Below are positions 11,164-63,946 of a stretch of DNA of 64,000 bases, piece by piece. Source of the DNA: Candidatus Pacebacteria bacterium CG2_30_36_39. GTDB lineage: Bacteria; Patescibacteriota; Microgenomatia; UBA1400; PJMF01. Position numbers and translations under genes: made by a program. Each line of letters opens with the position of its first letter. Position 1 is the first letter of the stretch. Under the pieces are notes generated by a model. The model was not told the origin of the DNA and made no database searches. It saw only the letters and a program-made list of their open reading frames with translations. The DNA is taken from the NCBI GenBank assembly GCA_001873435.1, contig MNZB01000004.1, forward strand, positions 14,030 to 78,029, given 5' to 3'.

Positions 11164-12795
11164 TTAATGAGTTCCTGAGGCGACTCTTTGAGCGTGAACA
11201 GCCATTGTGTCGCTAGAATTTTGTAATGAACCAACTACGTTTACGTACTCTGGCAATCTCATTCCATCTCTGTGTCTATCAACATCGTGGAGAGTACCAA
11301 TAATACGACCACCTGGTTTAACTAACCTACTGGCTTCCTCAAAAATCTTACAAACTTGATGTCCACCTTCACAACAATCAGCAGCTGATGTTTGAACAAC
11401 TACCATGTCATAAAGTGGTTCTTCATAAAATTCACCAATTGGAATATTACCCAAGTCTTCAACGTTGCGGAAACGAACGTTCATAGCACGCATACCATTT
11501 AGAGCCTGCATGATGAAAGCTTGCTTACCTCTACCATGACTCATGATGTCAATACGACGAAGTGGATTTTTACCATCCTTGGCATTAGCAGCAGATAAAA
11601 TATTTGCTTCTTTATGACAACCAATGAATAAAACTCTTTGACGAGGATTTTCTCTTAGTTCGGCTAGAGCTTCAGCAATATTAGAGTCAGGAGTATGATC
11701 TTGTTTTCTCCATTCCTCATACTTTTCTTGGAAGAGAGATTCTACTTTATTCCAATCTAAAGATAGAACTTCAGCAGTATCTCTAATTCCTAAGGCACCT
11801 AAAACAAAAGCTTTTAATGGATAAAAGGTATTGTGACCAGCATCAGTCACTAAACTATAATCTCCAACCCAACTATTTACTTTAGCTTGAGCTGCAATTA
11901 CTGATCCCTCTCCAACATACATAGTTCTATAAAGAACTTTGGCTTCTTTAGCTACCCAAGCCCAATCACCAATAGTGACACCTGGGAAACTAGTATATTG
12001 ACGGACACGAGCAAGTTGAGAAGGTAGATCGGCTGGATGTTCTTGAGTAATAAAGTAGGCTTTTTGACCAACCCAAGCATTATCACCAATTTTTAAAGTT
12101 TCACCACCTTGTACGTTAAAGGCACCGCCAATACGAGCATAGCGACCAATAGAAACTCTAGGAATAGCACTCATTGGACCCATTGAAGAATCCATTTCTG
12201 GATGAGCAGAAGTGTTGTAACCAGAACTCTGAAAATGAGTAGGAAGAATAGCTTCAAAACCACGGCCAACATCAGTTGGAAGCATTTGTGAGCCACCTCT
12301 TAGCATATCAAAACTTAATGGATTGCCACTTGGACTAATTGTTTTTCCAGATTCTTCCAAAGGATGGACATGTAAAATAGGACCAGTAGTATCAATATAA
12401 AAATGTTCTTCTGGTAAGTTAAAAGCTGCTCTGAGTTCTCCGAGTTTTTCTTTCCAAAGAGCTGCCATGGCAATTTCATCGGTAAAGGTTTTAGCTTTGC
12501 TACCAATTTTCTTTAAATCAGCACAGATCATGGCCCAAGCATAGGCTGGGGTCATGTCACCCAAATGCAAAGCACCTTGAACAAACATTGCTACTTCAGC
12601 ATCAAATGGACGAGTGTATTCTGCCGGTTGATGCTCTTCAAAAACTACTGGTCTAGTAAGACCAAGTTCTTGAGCTAATTTCATTTGGTTGGAGGGATCA
12701 CGGTCGATAATTTGACCCGCAGGATTAATAGCCAGGACTTCACCTTGGCCTAATCGTCTATGAACTTCTTCTGTGTGTTCTGCCTTTTTTGCCAT
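11164..12795 (-). CDS. hypothetical multi-domain protein: N-terminal unknown domain, central left-handed beta-helix (hexapeptide-repeat) region, C-terminal class-I methyltransferase-like fold
   Basis: Hexapeptide-like periodicity in SIGRYARIGGAFNVQGGETLKIGDNAWVG...VTIGDWAWVAKEAKV...VGEGSVIAAQAKVN. The C-terminus has VLFIGCHKEA (degenerate motif I), YDMVVVQTSAAD (motif II-like) and LVKPGGRIIG (motif III). Start taken at ATG 12795 (MAKKAEH); the track starts at an upstream TTG. Confidence 0.5.
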   Translation of the reverse strand: MAKKAEHTEEVHRRLGQGEVLAINPAGQIIDRDPSNQMKLAQELGLTRPVVFEEHQPAEYTRPFDAEVAMFVQGALHLGDMTPAYAWAMICADLKKIGSKAKTFTDEIAMAALWKEKLGELRAAFNLPEEHFYIDTTGPILHVHPLEESGKTISPSGNPLSFDMLRGGSQMLPTDVGRGFEAILPTHFQSSGYNTSAHPEMDSSMGPMSAIPRVSIGRYARIGGAFNVQGGETLKIGDNAWVGQKAYFITQEHPADLPSQLARVRQYTSFPGVTIGDWAWVAKEAKVLYRTMYVGEGSVIAAQAKVNSWVGDYSLVTDAGHNTFYPLKAFVLGALGIRDTAEVLSLDWNKVESLFQEKYEEWRKQDHTPDSNIAEALAELRENPRQRVLFIGCHKEANILSAANAKDGKNPLRRIDIMSHGRGKQAFIMQALNGMRAMNVRFRNVEDLGNIPIGEFYEEPLYDMVVVQTSAADCCEGGHQVCKIFEEASRLVKPGGRIIGTLHDVDRHRDGMRLPEYVNVVGSLQNSSDTMAVHAQRVASGTH

Positions 12796-12853
12796 AATTC
12801 TCTCTTTTCTCCCCAATTAGTAATATTTGAGCAGTGCGAGAAGAAAAAAAAGG

Positions 12854-12898
12854 ATTATAGTCCTTTCATAATGAATTGTCAATACTTTATATAGGATA
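12854..12898 (-). promoter_or_regulatory. near-consensus sigma70 promoter (TTGACA-17-TATAAT) with upstream TATCCTATA element; drives the 11164..6507 operon
   Basis: Minus strand reads TATCCTATATAAAGTATTGACAattcattatgaaaggacTATAATcc. The -35 is at 12877..12882, the -10 at 12854..12859 and TATCCTATA at 12890..12898. Confidence 0.55.
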
Positions 12899-13233: not shown

Positions 13234-14349
13234 TCAACTATTTATTATTTTTTCCCAACTATATTTTTCATTACCAAAATGCCCATAAACAGCAGTCTGC
13301 TTATAAATTGGTTGTTTTAAATTTAAATAATTAATTGTTCCAGCCACAGACAAATCAATTAGTTCTTTGGCAAATTTTTCTATTTTTTTATCACTAACTT
13401 TGGCTGTGCCAAAAGTCTCTATCTCCAACATAACTGGTTTTTGTGCTCCAATAAAATATGCCAAACGTACTTCAGCTTTTTTAGCTAAATTATTTCCAAC
13501 AATATTTTTAGCAATAAACCTAGCTGCATAAGCACCAGATCTATCAACTTTACTAGGATCTTTACCAGAAAATGCTCCCCCACCTACCCTGGCAAAACCA
13601 CCATATGTATCTACCACTATTTTTCTTCCAGTTACTCCAGTATCTGAGGCTGGACCACCTATATACCAAGCCCCAGTACCATTAACTACTAATTGATTTT
13701 TATTAATTGAAAAACCATAAAATTCTAATACTGGCAAAACTACTTGTTGATATAAATCATTTTTTACATCTACAAGTTTCATACTCTTTTGGTGCGGTAC
13801 AGCCAAAACTACTTGGACAATACCAACTGGTTTATCATTTTCATATTGAACACTAACTTGAGTTTTTCCATCTGGCCTAAGATATGAAAGTTGCTTACTT
13901 TCTCTAACACAATCTATTTTTTCAGCCAATTTATGTGCTAACTCTATTGGAAGTGGCATAAGATTTTTTGTGTCCTGACAAGCATAGCCAAACATCATTC
14001 CCTGATCTCCAGCTCCAGCACTATCAACTCCTATGGCAATTTCTGGAGACTGATTGTGAATATAGACATTTATTGGAGATAAATTAGTAAAACCAAGGAA
14101 CCACTTAGTAAATCCAAGTCTCTTGATTTCTTCTCTGGCAATTAATTCATAATTTGGTTTTTCACCAAGACAAGTAACTTCTCCAGCCATCACCACTTGA
14201 TTTGCTGTTACTAGGGTTTCTACAGCAACCCTTCCATTAGGATCCTGCTTAAGAACAGCATCAACTACTGCATCAGATATTTGATCACAGATCTTATCAG
14301 GGTGACCAGCACAGACTGATTCTGAAGTAAAAATATATGATTGTGGCAT
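13234..14349 (-). CDS. metK: S-adenosylmethionine synthetase
   Basis: GHPDKICDQISDAVVDA and other MetK blocks. Start taken at MPQSY (14349) because GAGGAG lies 9 nt upstream; the upstream in-frame Met at 14367 lies inside the RBS. Confidence 0.95.
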   Translation of the reverse strand: MPQSYIFTSESVCAGHPDKICDQISDAVVDAVLKQDPNGRVAVETLVTANQVVMAGEVTCLGEKPNYELIAREEIKRLGFTKWFLGFTNLSPINVYIHNQSPEIAIGVDSAGAGDQGMMFGYACQDTKNLMPLPIELAHKLAEKIDCVRESKQLSYLRPDGKTQVSVQYENDKPVGIVQVVLAVPHQKSMKLVDVKNDLYQQVVLPVLEFYGFSINKNQLVVNGTGAWYIGGPASDTGVTGRKIVVDTYGGFARVGGGAFSGKDPSKVDRSGAYAARFIAKNIVGNNLAKKAEVRLAYFIGAQKPVMLEIETFGTAKVSDKKIEKFAKELIDLSVAGTINYLNLKQPIYKQTAVYGHFGNEKYSWEKIINS

Positions 14350-14351
14350 AA

Positions 14352-14503
14352 AAAAAACTCCTCTCAATAATTAAGGAGGAGTTACTTATTTTTTTTGCCT
14401 ATTTCGGCCACATCATTCCCCCTTAAGCGAACTAGCACCGTATCCTTTGCCAAAAGGCTCGGTTGCTGGACAATGTATAAACATTGCCACTCTTGATGTT
14501 GAG
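14352..14503 (-). promoter_or_regulatory. SAM-I-clan (S-box-like, possibly SAM-I/IV variant) riboswitch leader with terminator hairpin overlapping the metK RBS and start codon
   Basis: Minus-strand RNA CUCAACAUCAAGAGUGGCAAUGUUUAUACAUUGUCCAGCAACCGAGCCUUUUGGCAAAGGAUACGGUGCUAGUUCGCUUAAGGGGGAAUGAUGUGG contains the S-box signatures AUCAAGAG, GCAACC and GGUGCUA plus a closing P1 (CAACAUC/GAUGUGG). It is followed by AACUCCUCC-uuaauuauuga-GAGGAGUU-UUUUUUUU(AUG). P2 is a simple hairpin without the classic GGAGGGA/GGCCC kink-turn, so the subtype is uncertain. Confidence 0.55.
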
Positions 14504-14538
14504 AAAAATTATATCAGACTAATATTTATTTGCACAGC

Positions 14539-15865: not shown

Positions 15866-16657
15866 TTACCATTTAATTTTAATTAAATCAGATAATTCTT
15901 TTTTTGATTCTTTTGATGTTAGATCAAGACTCACTGGAGTAACTGAAATGCGTTCATTTTCCAAGGCATTAAGATCTGTGCCATTTGGATATCCCTTGGT
16001 ATTGGGTGGGGAACCTATATGTCTATATTTTTCTCCTTGCTTTGCAAAGAGCTTGCCATACTTATCTCTAGCAATATCAGTAACTTCACAAGGAGTATTC
16101 ATATCAGCTGCAAAAGGAATGTTGACTGAAATTAAATCAACATCATCCTTTAAATTTGCATTAATAGTAATTTCAACTAATTTGGCAGTGATCTTGGCTG
16201 GATTTTCATAAATATGATAAAAAGCTCGATCAAAATAATTAATTTCTTTATCATGATCCCAGGTTAAATGCAGTGATGATGCCAAGGCTTTTGTACCATC
16301 AATGGCTGCTTCCATTGCAGCTCCGGCAGTTCCAGAACTTAATATTCTTCCATGTCCAGCATTAAGACCAATGTTTATTCCTGAAACAACAAATTTTGGT
16401 CTACTAGGAGCTAAATCATAAAGACCAAGCTGTACGCAATCAGCTGGAGTACCACTAACTGCATATACTTCAAATTCTTCTAGTTTAACCTTATTTACTT
16501 CAAGGTCGTTGTAGCAAGTGATTGCCTTTCCCTGCCAACTTCTCTTGCGATCTGGAGCAACAGCAATTACATTAAATTTTTTTGCTAATTCCCTGAGTAA
16601 AGGATAAAAACCTATAGCTTGATATCCATCATCGTTAGTTAAAAGTATGTCGATCAT
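15866..16657 (-). CDS. surE: 5'/3'-nucleotidase SurE
   Basis: N-terminal MIDILLTNDDGY is the SurE signature. Length about 260 aa. Confidence 0.9.
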   Translation of the reverse strand: MIDILLTNDDGYQAIGFYPLLRELAKKFNVIAVAPDRKRSWQGKAITCYNDLEVNKVKLEEFEVYAVSGTPADCVQLGLYDLAPSRPKFVVSGINIGLNAGHGRILSSGTAGAAMEAAIDGTKALASSLHLTWDHDKEINYFDRAFYHIYENPAKITAKLVEITINANLKDDVDLISVNIPFAADMNTPCEVTDIARDKYGKLFAKQGEKYRHIGSPPNTKGYPNGTDLNALENERISVTPVSLDLTSKESKKELSDLIKIKW

Positions 16658-16677
16658 AATTAAATTATAGTCTAAGT

Positions 16678-17346
16678 TTATTTGATAATAGTTAATAAAT
16701 CAGTAAAAATTAAATTAATAATCTGTTTTTTTTGTTCATTAGTACTGTGAGTTGGAATTTCTGGAACCAACATTCTTTTTCCAGGTTTATATAGTTGTAC
16801 ATATTCGCTTAAACACCCCATGGCTTCTTTGAAACCAGGTTTATTAGTTGAAAAATATCCATTTACAAACTCAGTTCCAAGTTCTGGATCTTTTGGGTCA
16901 TCAATTCCATTTAAAACATTAATATTAAAATCATTTAACTTTTCAACAAAAGATTGCCACTTACTATTTTCTATCTCTCCATTGTCATATAAATAAAAAT
17001 CCTTATATTCAACGTCCTCATGAATAGATAAAAATGTTTTGAAATCAAATTGATTTATTATTAAAAGATTATCAATAGCTTCTTGTTCTGTTGCATTTTT
17101 TAAAAATTGACGGTTAAGATCTAAATTATTAATATTTCTTCTGGTTTTTTTCTCAACGGCAGAAGGACTTACTTTGGCTACATAAATAAAATCTGGAAGT
17201 TCTTTATAATGATTTTCAATATACTCCATAGTTGGCTCAATAACTCTCCATTCATCTCCATGTGTACCAGTATGAATAAGCAGCTCAGGATTTTCACCTT
17301 TTTGCCAATATGTAATCAGTCCAAGTTGTTTATTTTGTAGTTCCAC
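16678..17346 (-). CDS. M14-like zinc carboxypeptidase / AstE-AspA family hydrolase
   Basis: HTGTHGDEW (HxxE zinc ligands) and NLDLNRQF (DxNRNF-type signature). Confidence 0.6.
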   Translation of the reverse strand: MELQNKQLGLITYWQKGENPELLIHTGTHGDEWRVIEPTMEYIENHYKELPDFIYVAKVSPSAVEKKTRRNINNLDLNRQFLKNATEQEAIDNLLIINQFDFKTFLSIHEDVEYKDFYLYDNGEIENSKWQSFVEKLNDFNINVLNGIDDPKDPELGTEFVNGYFSTNKPGFKEAMGCLSEYVQLYKPGKRMLVPEIPTHSTNEQKKQIINLIFTDLLTIIK

Positions 17347-45583: not shown

Positions 45584-46414
45584 TTACGGAGCAACAACGT
45601 TGCTGGCAACCAAGGTCCATCCCGTCGCGTTTGTATGGCGAAGAATGGTCCAGGCGCCGTTGTTCACATCGAAGAAAACGACGTAAACAACTTTGCAACC
45701 CTGAAGTCCGCAGTTGTACAAGTGGCTGTTCGCCGCTTGCTGATAGATGTACGGCTGATCCATGAAGCCGCCAGCATTCTCTTTGACCTGATATTGCGTC
45801 ACCGTGGTTGCGCCAGGGTGATATCTGGAGAAGTTAACATCCAGATTCAGGTCTCCGGGTCCAGAATTGCGACCGCGGAGATAGATTTGCCATTCCACAT
45901 CCGGCTGGGGATTGGCGACAATCGAGTAGTTGCCAAACTTCATGACAACTCCAGCAGTAGTAGTCAGCTGGTAACCGCCTTCGTGAACGAATTTGGTTGC
46001 GGTGGCATTTTCCAACGACTCTTGCGAGTCAGGAGAAATGAGAGCCGCACTCGGATTGGCTTTGCGTTCGGCTTCGGTTTCGACGCCGACGACGCCGGGT
46101 TTGCCGCAGAAATCTTTACCGCCGGGAAGTGTGCAGACGTTTTCGTTGAAAACGCCATCTGCCCAACGATAAGCGGTGACCTTATAAGGGGCACCTTTGA
46201 TTTCGTAGCTCGGAGGTTGGATCTTGGCATTGCTTTGAGAAGGGCTGTCGTTTGATGGACCGCCTTGACCGGTGGAAACCGATTGAGTCGGGGCTACCGC
46301 AGTCACAGCAGGCTGTTCGCCGCCAGACATGTGGAAGTTACCGATATCAATGTTCCAGGGAGCGCAAGCGCTCAAAAGCACGGTCAACAACACTAGGGTT
46401 AGGGTCTTTTTCAT
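45584..46414 (-). CDS. lipoprotein, compositionally atypical (high GC, E. coli-like codon usage), function unknown
   Basis: MKKTLTLVLLTVLLSAC lipobox. RBS AAGGAG. GC-rich codons (CTG, GCG, CCG). A plus-strand shadow ORF overlaps it. Confidence 0.6.
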   Translation of the reverse strand: MKKTLTLVLLTVLLSACAPWNIDIGNFHMSGGEQPAVTAVAPTQSVSTGQGGPSNDSPSQSNAKIQPPSYEIKGAPYKVTAYRWADGVFNENVCTLPGGKDFCGKPGVVGVETEAERKANPSAALISPDSQESLENATATKFVHEGGYQLTTTAGVVMKFGNYSIVANPQPDVEWQIYLRGRNSGPGDLNLDVNFSRYHPGATTVTQYQVKENAGGFMDQPYIYQQAANSHLYNCGLQGCKVVYVVFFDVNNGAWTILRHTNATGWTLVASNVVAP

Positions 46415-46772
46415 CTTTCGTTACTCCTTGAGAGGTTTGATAGCAGTTTCGCCGCTCTAGTCCACGCTGGACTAGAGTCAGTTCACGCAATTAAAAACCA
46501 TATAAAAAGTTTCTAATTGCGCGAACCGATGGCTCAACTTCAAACTTCAAAAGAAGTAAAATTTCTCACTTGTTAAAGAGCGACTGAATTAACAGTCACC
46601 GTTGCTAAAAAGTATTTCGCTTAGAACATTCGTAGTGAATGAGTAGCGAGCAAGCTCTTCAGCCAAAAATCTTTTTATAAAAAACAAGACTTTTGGCTAA
46701 AGATCTGAAAGCAAAAAATTATTTTAATTAACTAATACTCTTGGTATATATATGTTTTTTTACACCAGGCTT

Positions 46773-46813
46773 AAGTATAGCACTAAAAGACCATTTTGTC
46801 AATGTTATAGGAT
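46773..46813 (-). promoter_or_regulatory. sigma70 promoter TTGACA-17-TATACT with upstream TATCCTATA element (drives 45584..46414 through a ~350-nt structured leader)
   Basis: Minus strand TATCCTATAACATTGACAaaatggtcttttagtgcTATACTtaagcctgg. Confidence 0.55.
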
Positions 46814-46845
46814 ATATTTTGGCTTATTTTATAATTAAAAGTTTC

Positions 46846-46875
46846 AGATCCCTGCCCATGTAAATGGACAGGGAT
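46846..46875 (-). terminator. hairpin GATCCCTG-N14-CAGGGATC downstream of 46892..47320
   Basis: 8-bp stem 17 nt after the stop. On the minus strand it is followed by TGAAACTTTT. Confidence 0.4.
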
Positions 46876-46891
46876 CTTGGCCAATTACGGC

Positions 46892-47320
46892 CTATGGAGT
46901 TGGTGTTGGGGTTGGAGTAAGAGTAAACACCGGCGTGAGCGTCGGTGGTGGTGTGGGTGTCCAAGACTGAGCAGTTGCAGTTTTTGCTGCCACCGCTATT
47001 GCCTTGTTCTCTGCCTCGATCTTTTTATCGATCTCGGAGATATCACCTTCAACCTTTTCGAGTTGAGCCTTTCCTTCTTCGATTTTTGCTTCGATCTCAA
47101 CTTTGCTGTCAAGCAAAATCAATTTCTGACAAATCAGAGGAAGTTCATCCTCTGGCATACTGGTGATTGAACCGAATTCATTTTCTCGGCCAATCACTTT
47201 TAATGCATCGTAGCAGGAGGCTGCCGCTTTTTCCTTTTCAGTTGCGAAAAGGCCGGAGCAGCTGCTCAACACAAAAATCCCTACTACTGCCAACAACAGG
47301 AAGATGTGAATCTTCTTCAT
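46892..47320 (-). CDS. small lipoprotein with coiled-coil segment and C-terminal Thr/Pro repeat tail, compositionally atypical (higher GC)
   Basis: MKKIHIFLLLAVVGIFVLSSC lipobox. A/E/K-rich heptad-like stretch. C-terminal TPTPPPTLTPVFTLTPTPTPTP. RBS GGAG. Confidence 0.6.
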   Translation of the reverse strand: MKKIHIFLLLAVVGIFVLSSCSGLFATEKEKAAASCYDALKVIGRENEFGSITSMPEDELPLICQKLILLDSKVEIEAKIEEGKAQLEKVEGDISEIDKKIEAENKAIAVAAKTATAQSWTPTPPPTLTPVFTLTPTPTPTP

Positions 47321-47403
47321 TGTTGCTCCGTCACTCCATGAGATTTAGATCCGTCACAGCGCAAGCGCTGTAACGATCCCCCTTCTAGAGAAGTGACCTG
47401 GTA

Positions 47404-47444
47404 AGTATAACAAAATAGATCAAAATAGTCAATGTTATAGGATA
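47404..47444 (-). promoter_or_regulatory. sigma70 promoter TTGACT-17-TATACT with upstream TATCCTATA element (drives 46892..47320)
   Basis: Minus strand TATCCTATAACATTGACTattttgatctattttgtTATACTtaccagg. The leader contains the palindrome ACAGCGC-AA-GCGCTGT. Confidence 0.55.
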
Positions 47445-52435: not shown

Positions 52436-52509
52436 CGGAGAGTGGCGCAGATGGCTAGCGCGCGCGCATGGGGTGCGCGAGGTCGCAGGTTCGAGTCCTG
52501 TCTCTCCGA
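52436..52509 (+). tRNA. tRNA-Pro (anticodon GGG), C1:G72 acceptor, no encoded CCA
   Basis: CGGAGAG-TG-GCGC-AGATGGCTA-GCGC-G-CGCGC-ATGGGGT-GCGCG-AGGTC-GCAGG-TTCGAGT-CCTGT-CTCTCCG-A. Cloverleaf is consistent. Anticodon loop AUGGGGU. Confidence 0.85.
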
Positions 52510-54143
52510 CAATCAGAAAAAAAGCCCTTTTTCTCAAAAGTAGCGAATGGTTCTTCTAATTGATACTTCGCTACTTTTTTGTTATTCACACGTAGGTTCG
52601 AGAAGATTTTTTCAATCAAATAATTTTTTCTACTTAGAGATTTGGTTTTGACGATCTCATCGGGCAATTTCTTAACTTGTTCGGTGAATTTAGAAAATGT
52701 CAAAATACTTGATTTGTTATTCTCAATCTGTTTTTCAATCTCAATTAATGCTGATTCAAATTCTTTGAGCTTTTTTCTATTTTCTTTCAGCTCTGATTCA
52801 TAATCTTCTCGTAGCTCTCGATCAGATATATCAAGTAGATACTTTTTGATTTTGATATTTTGCTGATTTAGACCAGCTTTTTGCGTAACAATTGATTTTT
52901 GTTCTACCCTGAGTAAAGCTAACCTATCTTTTTGAACCCTTTTAGACTCCTCTACATAATGCTCATATACCTCTTTTGTGGCAATGTTGGTATTTTTAAG
53001 AAAATCAACAACAAAATCTACTAAAACTCTAGCTCTAACGTGGTGTTGAACTTTTTTACCTGAGATATTTTTAAAAGAACATTTTTTGTTGTCACATCTA
53101 AAATAAAACTTGTTACCTTTGCTTGGTGAAGTGATTGAAACATACATTGTTTCACCACAATGATCACAAATAACTCGACCATTAAGTAGTCTACCCTTAA
53201 CATTCTTTTTCACTCTCTTGTCATATCTCCTCAAGAATGATTCTCTGTTTTTCTTAGTAATATTATTGATCTTGAAAAAGTGAGCAGGGCTAACTACTGG
53301 CACGAAATCAAATATCTCCATCAAATTAATAACCTTATCGCCATATCGCATTACCCCTGCATAAATTGGATCTGAAAACATTTCACTCAGACGTTTTTGA
53401 TCAAATGAATAGGGTTTTCTTTGATTTATCTTATTCGTTACTGGCTTAGTAAAATTATGTGTGTTGAGATACTCCTCAATTTCTCTATATATAGCCCCCT
53501 CAAACCTCATTTTCCAAGCTTCCCTGATCAAGACATAGTTATCACCATCGGGCTGTAATCGGTGCATATCGTCTTTAAAATAACCGTGTTTTGGTACTGT
53601 TAGCCAACCACCCTCTTCGGCTCTCTTATGAAGCCCTCTTTTTACATCTTTACTCAGAGCATCTGAATATTGTTTTGATAAAACAAAAGTAATGCCCAAC
53701 ATCACCTTGCCTGATTCATTATTTTCAAAGGAAAAAGAGGGAAATTTTAGATCCTTGATAATTCCTTTATCAAGCAGATCAATAATTTCACCTGCTTCTT
53801 TCATATTTCGAGCTAAACGATTTGGATGCCAAGCTAAAATACCTTGATACTTACCAGCCTTTACATCTTCAATCATTTTTCTAAACTTAGGACGAATATC
53901 AGGGTCTTTAGCACTCTCTTTTTCCTGAATATATGGCTCTATAACAATGAGCTTCTCTTTTCGAGCAAAGTTAAGGCACTCATCAATCTGGTCTGGAAGT
54001 GATTTCTCTTGTTTATCTTTGTCTTTTGTTGATCTTCGAGCATACAAAACATACTTGTATGATTTTGGATCATCTTCAACAATGGTATCTGCTTTTAAAT
54101 TTTTGAAGTATTCAAAAAAATCTTTTTGAGTAATATCAACCAT
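52455..54143 (-). CDS. large serine recombinase (resolvase/invertase catalytic domain + recombinase domain + zinc ribbon + coiled coil)
   Basis: N-terminal YARRSTKDKDKQEKSLPDQ (catalytic Ser), zinc ribbon CDHCGETMYVS...FRCDNKKC, 562 aa. The 3' 55 nt overlap the tRNA-Pro on the opposite strand. Confidence 0.85.
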   Translation of the reverse strand: MVDITQKDFFEYFKNLKADTIVEDDPKSYKYVLYARRSTKDKDKQEKSLPDQIDECLNFARKEKLIVIEPYIQEKESAKDPDIRPKFRKMIEDVKAGKYQGILAWHPNRLARNMKEAGEIIDLLDKGIIKDLKFPSFSFENNESGKVMLGITFVLSKQYSDALSKDVKRGLHKRAEEGGWLTVPKHGYFKDDMHRLQPDGDNYVLIREAWKMRFEGAIYREIEEYLNTHNFTKPVTNKINQRKPYSFDQKRLSEMFSDPIYAGVMRYGDKVINLMEIFDFVPVVSPAHFFKINNITKKNRESFLRRYDKRVKKNVKGRLLNGRVICDHCGETMYVSITSPSKGNKFYFRCDNKKCSFKNISGKKVQHHVRARVLVDFVVDFLKNTNIATKEVYEHYVEESKRVQKDRLALLRVEQKSIVTQKAGLNQQNIKIKKYLLDISDRELREDYESELKENRKKLKEFESALIEIEKQIENNKSSILTFSKFTEQVKKLPDEIVKTKSLSRKNYLIEKIFSNLRVNNKKVAKYQLEEPFATFEKKGFFSDCRRDRTRTCDLAHPMRAR

Positions 54144-54160
54144 ATCATCATTTTAAACCT

Positions 54161-54640
54161 TTAAGATGGTGGTGTAAGAGTGTAACCCATATTATCTAGT
54201 ATTCTTTGATACGCACCTAGTAAGTTATTAATTGTTTTTGGATCATTTTTAACACTCTCTATTGCTTGATTTTCGGCTTCTTTGATCTCATCTCGACTGA
54301 ACTCTTCCTTTGTTGCTCTGCTGTTTGTTGCAACCCATTGAATGAACTTGATCTGATCTCTGGTAAGTCCAGAGCCACCTGCTTGTTTGGTTTTAATCAA
54401 TTCTAATTCGTTGCTAACAATCTCGGCTACTACTATTGACAGGTGGTTTTGGGCTACCTCAATTCTTTCCGCAAATTCTGAATTTTCAGATTGCAAATCA
54501 TAGATGGTTGACTTTGGTATTTGGGCTTTAAGACAGGCTTTATTGATACTCAAACCAGCCTTTAAGTATGGTTCTAGTTTTCGGAAGAGTGTATCAACTT
54601 GTTTATCACTTAGGGCTGGTCTGCCTATATTTTGACTCAT
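54161..54640 (-). CDS. HTH DNA-binding protein resembling phage terminase small subunit N-terminus (tentative)
   Basis: GRPALSDKQVDTLFRKLEPYLKAGLSINKACLKAQIPKSTIYDL follows the GRP...e.i...G.s...c...gis..T pattern of TerS-type HTH domains. Confidence 0.4.
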   Translation of the reverse strand: MSQNIGRPALSDKQVDTLFRKLEPYLKAGLSINKACLKAQIPKSTIYDLQSENSEFAERIEVAQNHLSIVVAEIVSNELELIKTKQAGGSGLTRDQIKFIQWVATNSRATKEEFSRDEIKEAENQAIESVKNDPKTINNLLGAYQRILDNMGYTLTPPS

Positions 54641-54707
54641 ACTTTAATTATAAAAGAAATAAATCAGATTTTTCTGTTTTTGATGTGTTTATAATGCGTT
54701 ATAAAGA

Positions 54708-54740
54708 ATGCAAAAAGGGCTAATGTTTAATTAGCCCTTT
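54708..54740 (-). terminator. intrinsic terminator AAAGGGCTAAT-gttta-ATTAGCCCTTT plus U-run, after the Ltp gene
   Basis: Perfect 11-bp stem followed by TTTTTGCATTC on the minus strand. Confidence 0.6.
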
Positions 54741-54767
54741 AGTATTCGATTAAACAGATTGGTGATG

Positions 54768-55316
54768 TTATAAACCTACAGCATCAGCTCCATAACTGGC
54801 TTGTTCTGTTGTAAAGCCTTCAAACTCTAATTGATTTATTAAGCTTTCTCTTGAATAACCAGAAATATCTAGGTACGACTTAGCCTTTTTTGAGGCTTGT
54901 TCATTCCAATCAGCCCCAACTGCATCAACTGCATAAGTAGCATCTTCTGTAGAGAACTTTTCAAACTCTAGTTGTTTTATTAAGCCACTTCTTGAATAGC
55001 CTGAAATACTCAAATATGACTTTGCTTTTCTAACAGCATTTTTTTGAGATACAGTTTCGGAAGCATTACTATCTTCCGATTTGGTTGTGTCACTTTCTTC
55101 AATGACTTCTGTATTAGGTGATATGGTATTAGATTGGCTAGTTGGTGTATCACTACCACCAGAACTAGCTCCAATTACAATAAAGAGAAGGATAATTCCT
55201 AGAATACCAGTTAATATCGGGTGACGTTGTGCCCAATTACCCTGCTTTTCTTGACAATACGGACATTTTTTTGCTTTGTTATCGATTTCTTTTTGACAGC
55301 TACGACATTTTTTCAT
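54768..55316 (-). CDS. Ltp-family (host cell surface-exposed lipoprotein) superinfection-exclusion-like protein with N-terminal zinc ribbon and TM anchor
   Basis: CRSCQKEIDNKAKKCPYCQ ribbon, TM helix, Ser/Thr-rich linker, then two copies of AKSYL.ISGYSR.GLI.QLEFE.F..E.A.Y..DAVG (the Ltp repeat known from TP-J34-like prophages). Confidence 0.7.
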   Translation of the reverse strand: MKKCRSCQKEIDNKAKKCPYCQEKQGNWAQRHPILTGILGIILLFIVIGASSGGSDTPTSQSNTISPNTEVIEESDTTKSEDSNASETVSQKNAVRKAKSYLSISGYSRSGLIKQLEFEKFSTEDATYAVDAVGADWNEQASKKAKSYLDISGYSRESLINQLEFEGFTTEQASYGADAVGL

Positions 55317-55358
55317 AGGGTAACCCTTTCGTTGTTCTAATCTTGTGGTTAATTATAT

Positions 55359-55405
55359 AGCAAATTGGGTGTTTACAACATAACTAATCCAATGTCTACA
55401 ACGTG
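55359..55405. promoter_or_regulatory. operator-like repeat cluster between divergent Ltp and XRE genes
   Basis: GTGTTTACAACATAACTAATCCAATGTCTACAACGTGGTGTAAACAT: imperfect inverted repeat (GTGTTTACA / TGTAAACAt) and direct repeat TACAAC. Confidence 0.35.
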
Positions 55406-55438
55406 GTGTAAACATAGGAATGGCACAACAATTAGAAT

Positions 55439-55711
55439 GTGTCATCTGCTAAATATAAACCATCATTGTCTAAACCTGAACAAGATAAATTAAGAAAACA
55501 ATTTACTCGAAAATTAGCAATTCATCTCAGGTCTGTTAGAGAGGAAAAAGGTCTTACTCAGGAAGACTTGGCTTTTAAAGCTGGAATCAACACAGCTTAT
55601 TACAGCCATTTAGAGCGTGGTGTTTATAGTCCAACTATGTTTGTAATTTGGAAAATAGCAGAAGCTCTTAAAATTGATTTAGAAAATTTTATGAAAGGTT
55701 TTGACTATTAA
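55439..55711 (+). CDS. XRE-family (Cro/CI-type) HTH transcriptional regulator
   Basis: LRSVREEKGLTQEDLAFKAGINTAYYSHLERG is the canonical HTH_XRE. Confidence 0.8.
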   Translation: MSSAKYKPSLSKPEQDKLRKQFTRKLAIHLRSVREEKGLTQEDLAFKAGINTAYYSHLERGVYSPTMFVIWKIAEALKIDLENFMKGFDY

Positions 55712-55752
55712 GTAGCAAATACATAATTAATTCGGTGAGATTAATGTAGATA

Positions 55753-55890
55753 TTAATAGTCTAAGGTAATAACATCACCATCGTCACTTATAGCCTGATC
55801 ATCATCCAAATCTTGGCTGGGTTCATTATCTTGGTTGTCATTATCAACCTCATCAACTAAATCGGTTAAATAATCTTTTTGTGAGTTCAT
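55753..55890 (-). CDS. 45-aa highly acidic small protein (own ORF call, below the track size cutoff)
   Basis: Own translation MNSQKDYLTDLVDEVDNDNQDNEPSQDLDDDQAISDDGDVITLDY. Inside the integrative element. Confidence 0.3.
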   Translation of the reverse strand: MNSQKDYLTDLVDEVDNDNQDNEPSQDLDDDQAISDDGDVITLDY

Positions 55891-56133
55891 ATCACTATTA
55901 TAGCGTGATTGCTTGATATTTTTCTTCACTAATTTTTACATTTCCCTTGAAGTAATCTGTATAGTAATCAACAACTATTGATAATTCTGGTAGTTGAGAG
56001 ATGATGGTATCATAGAGAAGTTCGGGATAGCTTTCCCGTTTTCGACAAAACTTTTTAATCATATAGTTTTCATCCAATAAATTAGCTTTGGCTGGGTAAA
56101 AAGAGCTATAATGTCTTTTTTAAAGAAAAAAAT

Positions 56134-57897: not shown

Positions 57898-57928
57898 TAA
57901 GAATTTGTGTATATTTACTAGAAAATAA

Positions 57929-57970
57929 TATCCTATAACTATTGATTAATTACATATTTTGTTATACAAT
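57929..57970 (+). promoter_or_regulatory. sigma70-like promoter TTGATT-17-TACAAT with upstream TATCCTATA element; ~195-nt leader to the GC-rich small membrane protein gene
   Basis: Plus strand TATCCTATAACTATTGATTaattacatattttgttaTACAAT. Fourth occurrence of the TATCCTATA-N3..7-(-35) arrangement. Confidence 0.5.
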
Positions 57971-58170
57971 GATAGATTCTGCAAAATAAATAAAGTTGTG
58001 TTATCGCAACACTTATTTTTGTTTAGTCTGCAGTAAGTTCTTTAAAAAAACTTGTTGTAATTATTCTTTGGCGATCAGCACTCAAGATATCTATTTTGGT
58101 ATTTTGAGCGCTGTTCACCAAGAATGGCCATCTTACCCATTCCGGGTGAGACGTAGATTTGGAGGAAGTT

Positions 58171-58380
58171 ATGAACTTCGCAATCCTATTCTTTGGCGGG
58201 TTATTGCTGATTGTGGTGGGCTTTGTGCTCATCTTGATCAACATGGCTAAAGCCAGAAAACGCGAGTCAACCGGTAAAACTATCGGCGGACACTGCGGCG
58301 GCATGGCAATTATGTTCGTAGGAATTGTCGTTACCCTCTCGGGAACGATTGGTTGGCTCATCGCCAACTTTCCTTTCTAA
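58171..58380 (+). CDS. 69-aa two-TM small membrane protein, compositionally atypical (higher GC)
   Basis: MNFAILFFGGLLLIVVGFVLILINMAKARKRESTGKTIGGHCGGMAIMFVGIVVTLSGTIGWLIANFPF. RBS GGAGG 5 nt upstream of the ATG. The track start is an upstream TTG. Confidence 0.55.
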   Translation: MNFAILFFGGLLLIVVGFVLILINMAKARKRESTGKTIGGHCGGMAIMFVGIVVTLSGTIGWLIANFPF

Positions 58381-58403
58381 CGAATTGCTCAACAAGTTAT
58401 TCA

Positions 58404-58436
58404 AAGCGCCGGGTTCTGCCTGGCGCTTTTTTTATT
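58404..58436 (+). terminator. canonical intrinsic terminator AAGCGCCgGG-ttctg-CCtGGCGCTT plus T8
   Basis: GC-rich stem followed by TTTTTTTATTT, 24 nt after the stop of the small membrane protein gene. Confidence 0.6.
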
Positions 58437-58514
58437 TCAACAATCAGAGATATAATGTAAGTATTAACAATAATCATAGCTTTTTTTGATATAGCTTGAT
58501 ATAATATAGGACAT

Positions 58515-58952
58515 ATGAACATTGAAAGTTCCTCAAAAACCTGGGCTGTAATTTTTGCAGTCTTAGTATTAGGTATCGTCGGTTATTTTGGCTACAAATT
58601 CTATTTTCCTCGCGAAGAAGAAATTGTATTTGAAAAAACCACAGAACCAACCCCTACCCCAGCTCCATTCCGTTGGGATAAATATCTTGGTGGCGATGAA
58701 GCAACAAAGAGTGGTGAAGTAGAAATTACCACCAAAGGTGGCGTAGCTGAAAAAGGTGCTTCAACAACTAAAGAAGTAAGTGTTACAGAGCCAGCAACCA
58801 CTAAAAAAGAAACTACTGTTACCGTAACTACTTCTACTAGTGAAAATGGTCAAAAGACAACCGAAACCAAGACATACTCTACAACTGATGAAAATTGGTC
58901 AATTGAAGTTAAGGCCGAAGCTCACGCTGAGTCTTCAAGTTCTTCAAACTAA
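58515..58952 (+). CDS. membrane-anchored Thr/Glu/Lys-rich low-complexity protein
   Basis: N-terminal TM helix, then a TTKE/TTE-rich region. 145 aa. Confidence 0.45.
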   Translation: MNIESSSKTWAVIFAVLVLGIVGYFGYKFYFPREEEIVFEKTTEPTPTPAPFRWDKYLGGDEATKSGEVEITTKGGVAEKGASTTKEVSVTEPATTKKETTVTVTTSTSENGQKTTETKTYSTTDENWSIEVKAEAHAESSSSSN

Positions 58953-63616: not shown

Positions 63617-63946
63617 CTACTTTTTGTACCAGTTGTTCACCAGGGTGATTTTGTCCACATGATTCACATCAGTGGTGGCAAATTTCTCCGTGCCATAGAA
63701 AAAGTTCGTGGTGCCTTGAACAACCGACACACAAGTGGAATCTCCACCAGTGTTATCGTTTGTACAGGACCACTCGCCATTTCCGAGGTTCGTCAGCGTC
63801 GCCACGGCGGTGCCGTTGGTGAGCTGGATGCTACTGTTGACAGCAACATCAATGGGAGTGGGAGCAATTGGAGTCGCTGGCGCGCAAGCGGCCAACAACA
63901 AGAGAAAGAGCGAAATGACCAGAATGGTCGGGAAAGGGTGCCTCAT
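63617..63946 (-). CDS. small lipoprotein, compositionally atypical (high GC)
   Basis: MRHPFPTILVISLFLLLLAAC lipobox. RBS AGGAG 6 nt upstream. GC-rich codons. Confidence 0.55.
   Translation of the reverse strand: MRHPFPTILVISLFLLLLAACAPATPIAPTPIDVAVNSSIQLTNGTAVATLTNLGNGEWSCTNDNTGGDSTCVSVVQGTTNFFYGTEKFATTDVNHVDKITLVNNWYKK

Follow-up and report, generated by a model that had tools for sequence, protein, structure and literature searches.

A predicted autonomous transcription unit for a 69-residue membrane protein in a groundwater Pacebacteria species and its likely place in a GC-rich envelope gene class

Results

A gene with its own promoter, leader and terminator

The best explanation that we can offer for a 69-codon open reading frame (ORF) of a groundwater Pacebacteria species, and to which we give a probability of about 55%, is that it encodes a translated small membrane hairpin, made from an mRNA built for stability, and that it belongs to a lineage-specific class of envelope genes. 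All coordinates refer to the window, the whole 64,000-nucleotide stretch of DNA that was analysed. Judged by its sequence signals, the gene is a stand-alone transcription unit for a 69-residue integral membrane protein. The elements that the initial annotation had placed between positions 57929 and 58436 were each recovered where it had put them, and they exceed chance expectation.

On the plus strand, the 9-mer TATCCTATA (57929-57937) lies 4 nt upstream of TTGATT, the -35 hexamer of a sigma-70-like core promoter detected by promoter scan (TTGATT at 57942-57947, a 17-nt spacer and TACAAT at 57965-57970). In its extended form, TATCCTATAAC (57929-57939), this promoter box ends 2 nt before the -35 hexamer. 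The -10 element could alternatively be the extended TGtTATACA at 57960-57968, and the core promoter aligns with the TTGACW-17-TATACT of other box promoters. Exact copies of the 9-mer occur 4 times in the window for 0.61 expected, a count that was reached in none of 100 shuffles, and the composite 'ATCCYATA, 0-8 nt, TTGAY' is found 4 times for 0.19 expected. Transcription would start around position 57977, about 7 nt past the promoter. The promoter that had been proposed some 195 nt upstream of the gene is thus borne out by the box and the sigma-70-like promoter, with an inferred leader of about 194 nt.

Folding of this one sequence predicts four hairpins in the 5' leader (57978-58170, plus strand), at 57987-58025 (core at 57995-58010, followed by a T-rich run), at 58029-58059, at 58061-58127, where a long hairpin has about 27 bp, and at 58131-58151. 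The MFE of the leader is -63.4 kcal/mol versus -39.6±4.0 kcal/mol for shuffled sequences (z = -5.9, single sequence). When the leader was compared with Rfam covariance models, the best matches were unrelated miRNA and snoRNA models far below gathering scores, and a known riboswitch or leader RNA for this gene was ruled out by this negative search. At gathering scores, the only Rfam matches in the whole window are three tRNAs and a SAM-I/IV riboswitch located elsewhere, upstream of metK; the window, which is bacterial, also carries RecA, RNase Y and SecG.

The ribosome-binding site that had been described for this gene is present as a GGAGG Shine-Dalgarno (SD) sequence at 58161-58165 (plus strand), 5 nt upstream of the ATG at 58171; only 4 of the 31 GGAGG sites of the window are followed by an ATG at a distance of 3-11 nt. 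The ORF is followed by an intrinsic terminator (58403-58436, plus strand) made of a 12-bp GC-rich stem (58403-58429) with a 3-nt loop and of a T run that extends to 58436. With a dG of -15.9 kcal/mol and a stem of 81% GC, this terminator ranks first among the 202 hairpin-plus-T-run candidates found on both strands of the window, and its description as unusual for this genome therefore holds. The base composition of the region changes in a single step, from 22% GC over 57898-58059 to 42-48% from 58060 on.

Evidence for coding

The ORF (58171-58380, plus strand) has a GC content of 0.48 and a GC3 of 0.61, versus a GC content of 0.35 for the window and a GC3 of 0.26±0.08 for bulk genes, in agreement with the GC-rich codons previously ascribed to it. 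GC content decreases in the order GC3 > GC1 > GC2. The length of the ORF alone is a weak argument, an ATG ORF this long being obtained in 4.6% of shuffles of the GC-rich stretch (P = 0.046). A six-frame coding score, based on a codon model for which the three GC-rich lipoprotein genes of the window served as training set, gave +16 bits for the annotated frame, the sole positive value, and -7 to -73 bits for the other five frames. Synonymous codon choice fits that of the GC-rich lipoprotein genes, with an LLR of +0.40 per codon versus -0.35±0.10 for 22 bulk genes, about 7 sd apart. Translational selection was rejected as the source of the high GC3 because G-ending codons are enriched as well as C-ending ones.

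An ORF of 114 aa with a TTG start is open on the minus strand (58023-58367). It was not retained as a gene: its coding score is negative and its third positions coincide with those of the plus-strand ORF, an antisense frame that shares third codon positions being one that stays open opposite GC3-rich genes. Taken together with the predicted two-helix fold and the codon-38 variant described below, the SD/ATG geometry, the codon choice and the coding score make it probable that the 69-codon ORF is translated.

The coding sequence (CDS) also appears to be structured at the RNA level, with a folding z-score of -3.7, and the whole inferred transcript reaches -8.8. Among the lipoprotein genes described below, the CDS of U47 and U63 have z-scores of -6.6 and -3.4, and the sister coding regions cut into 300-nt pieces gave -4.2, -5.4, +0.2 and -3.5. 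The corresponding value for 43 bulk coding regions is -0.62±1.28, with a minimum of -4.0; one bulk CDS, at this minimum, folds as well as the 69-codon CDS. The coding regions of the class are thus shifted to strong folding, each single CDS value being only a moderate outlier.

A predicted glycine-rich helical hairpin

The two-TM protein with a KARKRESTGK loop that had been initially annotated is supported by two lines of evidence, namely the two hydrophobic stretches located on either side of this loop and the helices of an AlphaFold2 model (residues 2-32 and 38-66, pLDDT 77). The protein can be divided into TM1 (about residues 3-25), a basic loop (26-37), a GGHCGG motif (39-44) and TM2 (about 44-66). 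The loop peptide reads ESTGKTIGGHCGGMAIMF... and the C-terminus, ...GWLIANFPF, has no charged residue past TM2. Helix 1 contains glycines 9, 10 and 17, and helix 2 contains glycines 39, 40, 43, 44, 51, 58 and 61. Their recurrence every 4 or 7 residues along one face of each helix suggests that the protein packs with itself or with a partner. A strain variant (contig L089) has 3 differences from the window in 6,550 nt, two of which are adjacent and fall in codon 38, where they replace Ile by Cys and produce the sequence CGGHCGG.

A class of GC-rich genes with a TATCCYATA box

Four GC3 outliers were identified in the window or beside it: the 69-codon gene (0.61), U46 (0.58), U47 (0.46) and U63 (0.64). 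A common design is found in all four, with a box next to a near-consensus -35 hexamer, a long leader (about 75-350 nt), a strong SD (AGGAG, GGAG, GGAGG and AGGAG) and a hairpin terminator. The three other members encode lipoproteins, whose signal peptides end in Cys (LSAC, LSSC and LAAC). All three are located on the minus strand. U47 (46892-47444) consists of the box TATCCTATAACATTGAC at 47428-47444, a leader of about 75 nt and a 142-aa lipoprotein gene at 46892-47320. U46 (45584-46814) has a box identical to that of U47 at 46798-46814, a leader of about 350 nt and a 276-aa lipoprotein gene at 45584-46414; in both units the same 17-mer TATCCTATAACATTGAC is followed by 17 nt and TATACT. U63 is a 109-aa lipoprotein gene at 63617-63946 whose promoter, TATCCCATA-gt-TTGACT-17-TATTAT, lies beyond the end of the window (positions 2789-2833 of contig L097). 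The 69-codon gene resembles these genes in each feature checked, that is, a box 2-7 nt before the -35 hexamer, GC3 and codon choice, leader, SD and terminator, monocistronic organization and a product predicted to be targeted to the envelope.

The fourth box promoter of the window, TATCCTATA-7 nt-TTGACA-17-TATAAT (12878-12898, minus strand), is the only one that drives a gene of normal GC content, which encodes a cytoplasmic hexapeptide/methyltransferase-like protein (11164-12816). The gene set is not purely envelope-related, since the box also drives this one cytoplasmic enzyme gene. By motif check, most bulk genes have no SD, and in several of them a TATAAT-like hexamer precedes the start by a few nt. 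The TATCCTATA box is probably a protein-binding site common to a small set of genes. A literature search on promoter motifs of Patescibacteria and on GC content and gene transfer in Pacebacteria yielded nothing relevant.

Conservation of the class in related species

Orthologues of U46 are found in synteny, after an SBP_bac_5 gene, in two other species (L007 and L008), whose genomes have GC contents of about 43% and 50%, respectively. The box is kept upstream of both orthologues: in L007, it forms a 20-bp perfect palindrome, GTTATAGGATATCCTATAAC, that abuts TTGACA, and in L008 it reads TCCTATAATATTGACA. The GC3 of U46 in the window, L007 and L008 is 0.58, 0.52 and 0.56, versus 0.21, 0.47 and 0.66 for the flanking SBP gene. 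The U46 proteins are at least as diverged as their flanks (54/48/43% identity versus 58/60/75%), which argues against a recent exchange. The U46 leader is conserved as well: it contains a block GCTCTTTAACARGTGAG along with a hairpin of about 21 bp. Compensatory changes affect 10 of the 27 predicted pairs in the three sequences, and the leader matched no Rfam family.

A further unit of similar architecture was found in L007 beside its Bcp gene. The box is located there inside the TTGACA-17-TATAAT spacer, and the unit has a leader of about 190 nt, an AAGGAG, a textbook terminator and a product that is a 133-aa membrane protein (GC3 0.66). Homology with the 69-codon unit was rejected, because the likeness is limited to architecture and there is no similarity between the two units at the protein or DNA level. 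The palindrome at one L007 promoter and the position of the box inside the spacer at another hint at a DNA-binding protein. As judged from these comparisons, GC-richness is a property of the gene class and not by itself a sign of recent import.

A species-restricted protein

The 69-residue protein was its own sole match both when 5.8 billion cluster representatives were searched by word index and when 1.84 billion representatives were scanned in full with HMMER. With a query of this size and databases so large, homologues below about 45% identity are easily missed, and distant ones may therefore exist. The 90% cluster of the protein has two members. No family of Pfam, NCBIfam, PHROGs or PADLOC reached its cut-off. 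The best sub-threshold matches, Pfam DUF7139 (E = 7e-4, 19.7 bits for a cut-off of 30) and NCBIfam TIGR00304 (E = 2e-3, 18 bits for a cut-off of 33), are small archaeal or uncharacterised 2-TM families of similar size, but these matches span hydrophobic segments only, and neither family was recovered in the billion-scale searches. Foldseek comparison of the AlphaFold2 model with the PDB returned only generic helical hairpins (best E = 3). Likewise, no match was obtained by tblastn against plasmids or against 50,697 phage records, nor by blastn against E. coli genomes, and tblastn and blastn against all related loci examined did not reveal a further copy of the ORF. No confident match to a housekeeping small membrane protein emerged from the family or billion-scale searches.

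Within the species, six of the seven other contigs compared are identical to the window over 57898-58514 (617 nt), and the sole change in this region of the seventh is the codon-38 dinucleotide. The 24 contigs examined all carry one and the same gene sequence, no pseudogenised copy was seen among them, and the sequence is indexed in 57 blocks of the collection. The gene is surrounded by those of an ABC transporter, a 145-aa anchored protein, a Bcp peroxiredoxin and a 214-aa membrane protein. Relatives with an ABC transporter of 80-91% identity lack the ORF beside the transporter gene, and the DNA downstream of the latter differs from one relative to another (methyltransferase, UDG, cytochrome b5, CTP transferase or short-chain dehydrogenase). 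A scan of genome contigs based on Bcp retrieved only distant relatives (≤59% identity); the ORF is in neither of the two top matches, L009 and L010, and partial gene order is kept in L009 only. Scans of metagenome contigs with the 69-aa and 214-aa proteins as queries gave no confirmed match, and these scans also missed the JGI contigs of the species itself. By these searches, the 69-residue protein is a species-restricted ORFan of one groundwater species of Pacebacteria (CPR). The NCBI label of the protein, 'Pacearchaeota archaeon', looks wrong, because the neighbouring ABC transporter shares 89-90% identity with proteins that carry the label Candidatus Pacebacteria.

No repeat copy of the hairpins or of the unit was found elsewhere in the window, and neither flanking direct repeats nor mobility genes adjoin the unit. 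A repeated or mobile element was ruled out on the basis of this single copy in the window and of the lack of flanking direct repeats. A nearby integrative element ends 2.1 kb upstream of the unit and is independent of it.

Discussion

A proposed stable message for a small envelope protein

We propose that transcription of the 69-codon gene starts about 7 nt past a sigma-70-type promoter that carries the box before its -35 hexamer, and produces an mRNA of about 460 nt with a folded leader of 194 nt, a GC-rich structured CDS and a very strong terminator hairpin. By analogy with the ompA and lpp mRNAs of E. coli, which are long-lived, this message would be resistant to nucleases and persist in the cell. 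Translation of the 69-aa ORF would be SD-dependent, driven by GGAGG, and the product would insert into the membrane as a helical hairpin, its basic loop KARKRESTGK facing the cytoplasm and its two short ends lying outside, as predicted by the positive-inside rule. The glycine faces of the two helices may then pack against another copy of the protein or against a partner. The protein would be a small, co-expressed constituent of the envelope, with a structural or accessory role, and not a lytic or toxic peptide; we favour this view because the regulatory design of the gene is that of the co-resident lipoprotein genes.

In this scheme, the stable mRNA and the envelope role are suggested by the example of the sister lipoprotein genes and of lpp and ompA in E. 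coli. The 69-codon unit and these E. coli genes have in common a monocistronic organization for a small or abundant envelope protein, a strong promoter, a structured 5' UTR or CDS, and an SD and an intrinsic terminator that are both strong. However, they are not related in sequence, and the upstream box and the GC3 enrichment over an AT-rich genome are absent from lpp and ompA.

Alternative readings

The product had initially been considered as a holin-like or toxin-like peptide. It would in that case damage the membrane, either as a type I toxin, whose translation would be held off by the folded leader or by an unseen antisense RNA, or as a holin-like pore former. A small, very hydrophobic and glycine-rich two-helix hairpin, a long structured leader and an orphan distribution would all suit such a peptide, as would the position of the AUG in the whole-transcript MFE fold, within the 3-nt loop of a 6-bp local stem; in the centroid fold, by contrast, the SD is unpaired. 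Hok, TisB, Fst and TxpA resemble the 69-codon gene by their small hydrophobic ORF, long folded 5' UTR and patchy or orphan distribution. Nevertheless, most type I toxins have one TM and fewer than 60 aa, whereas the protein studied here has two TM helices and 69 aa, its gene is present in a single copy, and a consensus scan at threshold detected no promoter-like site on the minus strand between 57900 and 58500. The class II holins or pinholins, such as S of phage 21 (about 70 aa, two TM), are comparable in size and number of TM helices. In holins, the last TM helix is typically followed by a hydrophilic and highly charged C-terminal domain; the 69-residue protein has no such tail and no plausible dual start, and there is no lysis cassette, endolysin or phage context around its gene. 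The homology and HMM searches suggested for holin and type I toxin families gave no significant match: no holin family was among the Pfam matches, and the best PHROGs matches had E = 0.15 (unknown function) and 0.62. There is also a sub-threshold likeness, over TM1 and the loop, to the 2TM effectors of defence systems, with Pfam Saf_2TM (PF18303) at E = 0.035 and 14.4 bits for a cut-off of 29.5 and PADLOC PDLC00707 at a non-significant E = 0.081, but the protein is free-standing and has no sensor domain, and no defence genes are nearby. The gene sequence, furthermore, does not vary and is not pseudogenised in the 24 contigs, and the same regulatory architecture is found on ordinary genes: the leader, SD and terminator are also those of three lipoprotein genes and therefore mark an expression class and not a toxin. 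A membrane-damaging function is, in our opinion, quite unlikely.

We consider it somewhat less improbable, although still unlikely, that the GC-rich block of about 375 nt (58060-58436), which comprises hairpins, the SD, the ORF and the terminator, is a cassette recently imported from a GC-richer donor, which landed behind a resident promoter and encodes a foreign accessory membrane protein. The sharp composition step at about 58060, an SD-led and terminator-capped design that is atypical for the genome, and the lack of the gene in every relative examined, in which the DNA past the ABC transporter differs each time, can be read in this way. However, no donor or homologue was found, codon choice is that of the resident GC-rich class, and U46, which has a like composition and design, is vertically inherited and syntenic in three species; in addition, the unit has no flanking repeats or mobility genes and the integrative element upstream is independent of it. 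The unit could also be a structured non-coding RNA of about 460 nt in which the ORF is a by-product of GC-rich sequence. The folding of the whole transcript, the marginal significance of ORF length and the open antisense frame are compatible with this possibility, and GC-rich islands of AT-rich genomes are often RNA genes. It is nevertheless very unlikely, given the ideal spacing between GGAGG and ATG, the frame-specific coding score and the GC3 > GC1 > GC2 order, and a translation that yields a clean two-TM, positive-inside pattern; moreover, the three sister units unambiguously encode lipoproteins and have lipoboxes, no Rfam match was obtained, and the antisense ORF sits in the expected shadow frame. 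Finally, His41 and Cys42, at the cytoplasmic end of helix 2, could point to a small membrane protein that handles thiols or metals in connection with nearby redox and metal genes. The GGHCGG motif, the sole strain variant (Ile38 to Cys, giving CGGHC) and the vicinity of an ABC transporter tagged 'subfamily B, heavy metal transporter' by one source, of Bcp and of a cluster of ArsR, thioredoxin and ArsP permease are in its favour. This proposal, which we find hardly credible, has against it that it depends on one Cys, one His and one variant contig, that the protein does not resemble MerE, MerF, MerT or any other known membrane protein that binds metals, and that many relatives have the ABC transporter conserved but lack the 69-codon gene. 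The latter is not co-transcribed with its redox and metal neighbours, because it has its own promoter and terminator.

Significance for CPR bacteria

By itself, the 69-codon gene encodes one more orphan small membrane protein, of modest annotation value. The pattern of its class is more useful: a promoter box marks a handful of envelope-protein genes that have their own composition, translation signals and mRNA architecture. The genes with this box give a handle on the regulation and surface biology of CPR organisms that are not yet culturable. They also call for caution: when an AT-rich CPR genome contains a GC-rich island with signals like those of E. coli, this island need not be foreign DNA, a toxin or an RNA gene.

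A broader interpretation, which is tentative and for now doubtful, is that the TATCCYATA-box genes form a lineage-specific envelope set, possibly a regulon, whose mRNAs would have been selected to remain at about 50% GC (GC3 about 0.55), structured, with long hairpin leaders and strong SDs, while drift took the rest of the genome from about 50% GC to 35% and SDs and leaders were for the most part dropped there. Such a set could serve as a platform for new orphan envelope genes. If this interpretation is true, it would amount to a compositional homeostasis that is specific to a gene class and linked to a promoter element, and if this compositional stasis reflects selection on mRNA structure or stability, these genes would offer a clear natural case in which selection at synonymous sites overrides a strong mutational bias.

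Promoter and leader organisation of the GC-rich genes

Three GC-rich lipoprotein genes, U46, U47 and U63, encode proteins of 276, 142 and 109 aa and lie on the minus strand of the window, the first two within 45584–47444 and the third at 63617–63946, with the upstream region of U63 continuing in L097 (2789–3330). All three possess a TATCCYATA box adjoining the −35 element, a long leader, a strong Shine-Dalgarno (SD) sequence and a hairpin terminator. The U47 promoter is an exact repeat of the 17-nt promoter sequence of U46, and the location of U47 between the SBP_bac_5 gene and U46 was seen only in the species of the window when compared with the U46 loci of two other species (L007 and L008).

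The 5′ UTR of U46, 300–370 nt long, is kept in these three species (window 46415–46790, minus strand; L007 9835–10207; L008 4300–4587). Their comparison revealed a conserved block, GCTCTTTAACARGTGAG, together with a hairpin roughly 21 bp long; compensatory changes are present at 10 of its 27 predicted pairs. No match to this 5′ UTR was found in Rfam. It is, as judged from sequence comparison, a candidate cis-acting leader RNA of an undescribed kind. The window also contains a SAM-I/IV riboswitch (14381–14504, minus strand; 54.5 bits for a gathering score of 41.1), located directly 5′ of the S-adenosylmethionine synthetase gene (13234–14367, minus strand).

A unit built like that of the 69-aa membrane protein gene adjoins the peroxiredoxin (Bcp) gene of the related species in L007 (2280–2950). 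Its promoter harbours the TATCCYATA box within the spacer of TTGACA-17-TATAAT, and is followed by a leader of about 190 nt, an AAGGAG motif, a gene for a 133-aa membrane protein and a strong terminator. The GC content at third codon positions of this gene is 0.66, as opposed to a background of about 0.37. No sequence relationship was found between the 133-aa and 69-aa units.

Variation at the 69-aa locus and its surroundings

The sole variant of the 69-aa protein was found in the strain-variant contig L089 (2341–2550), where an AT-to-TG dinucleotide change at window positions 58282–58283 produces Ile38Cys and the motif CGGHCGG. This change accounts for two of the three differences between L089 and the window strain over 6,550 nt. 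The leader of the gene contains a short hairpin, GTTGTG-TTAT-CGCAAC (57995–58023, plus strand), with an A-rich run 5′ and a T-rich run 3′. It is located 100 nt past the stop codon of the ABC transporter gene, yet 3′ of the 69-aa gene promoter, and could be a terminator of the ABC transcript, an attenuator of the 69-aa gene transcript, or an element acting on the minus strand.

An insert of 3,530 bp (52513–56042), immediately following tRNA-Pro (52436–52510), is missing from contigs L001 and L003, which are otherwise 100% identical to the window; the junction shares 6 bp. The genes of the insert encode a large serine recombinase (52455–54143, minus strand), a 159-aa ORF, an Ltp-type lipoprotein (54768–55316, minus strand) and an XRE regulator (55439–55711, plus strand). 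This insert, which probably represents a small integrative element or the remains of a prophage, is unconnected with the 69-aa gene.

The NCBI record of protein P0001 (GCA_009992265.1) gives its source as ‘Candidatus Pacearchaeota archaeon’. Genes for RecA, RNase Y and SecG are, however, present on the contig, together with one for an ABC transporter showing 89–90% identity to Candidatus Pacebacteria proteins, and the taxonomic label is likely a mix-up.

Gene starts in the window

A motif check of many gene starts among the bulk genes of the window (for example 58499–58517, 1798–2380 and 15866–16680) found that most have no recognisable SD sequence and that several carry a TATAAT-like hexamer 5–12 nt 5′ of the start codon, these tallies being approximate as starts were taken from the longest ORFs. 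Together, the two features suggest, at the sequence level, that leaderless or very short-leader mRNAs are frequent in this genome.
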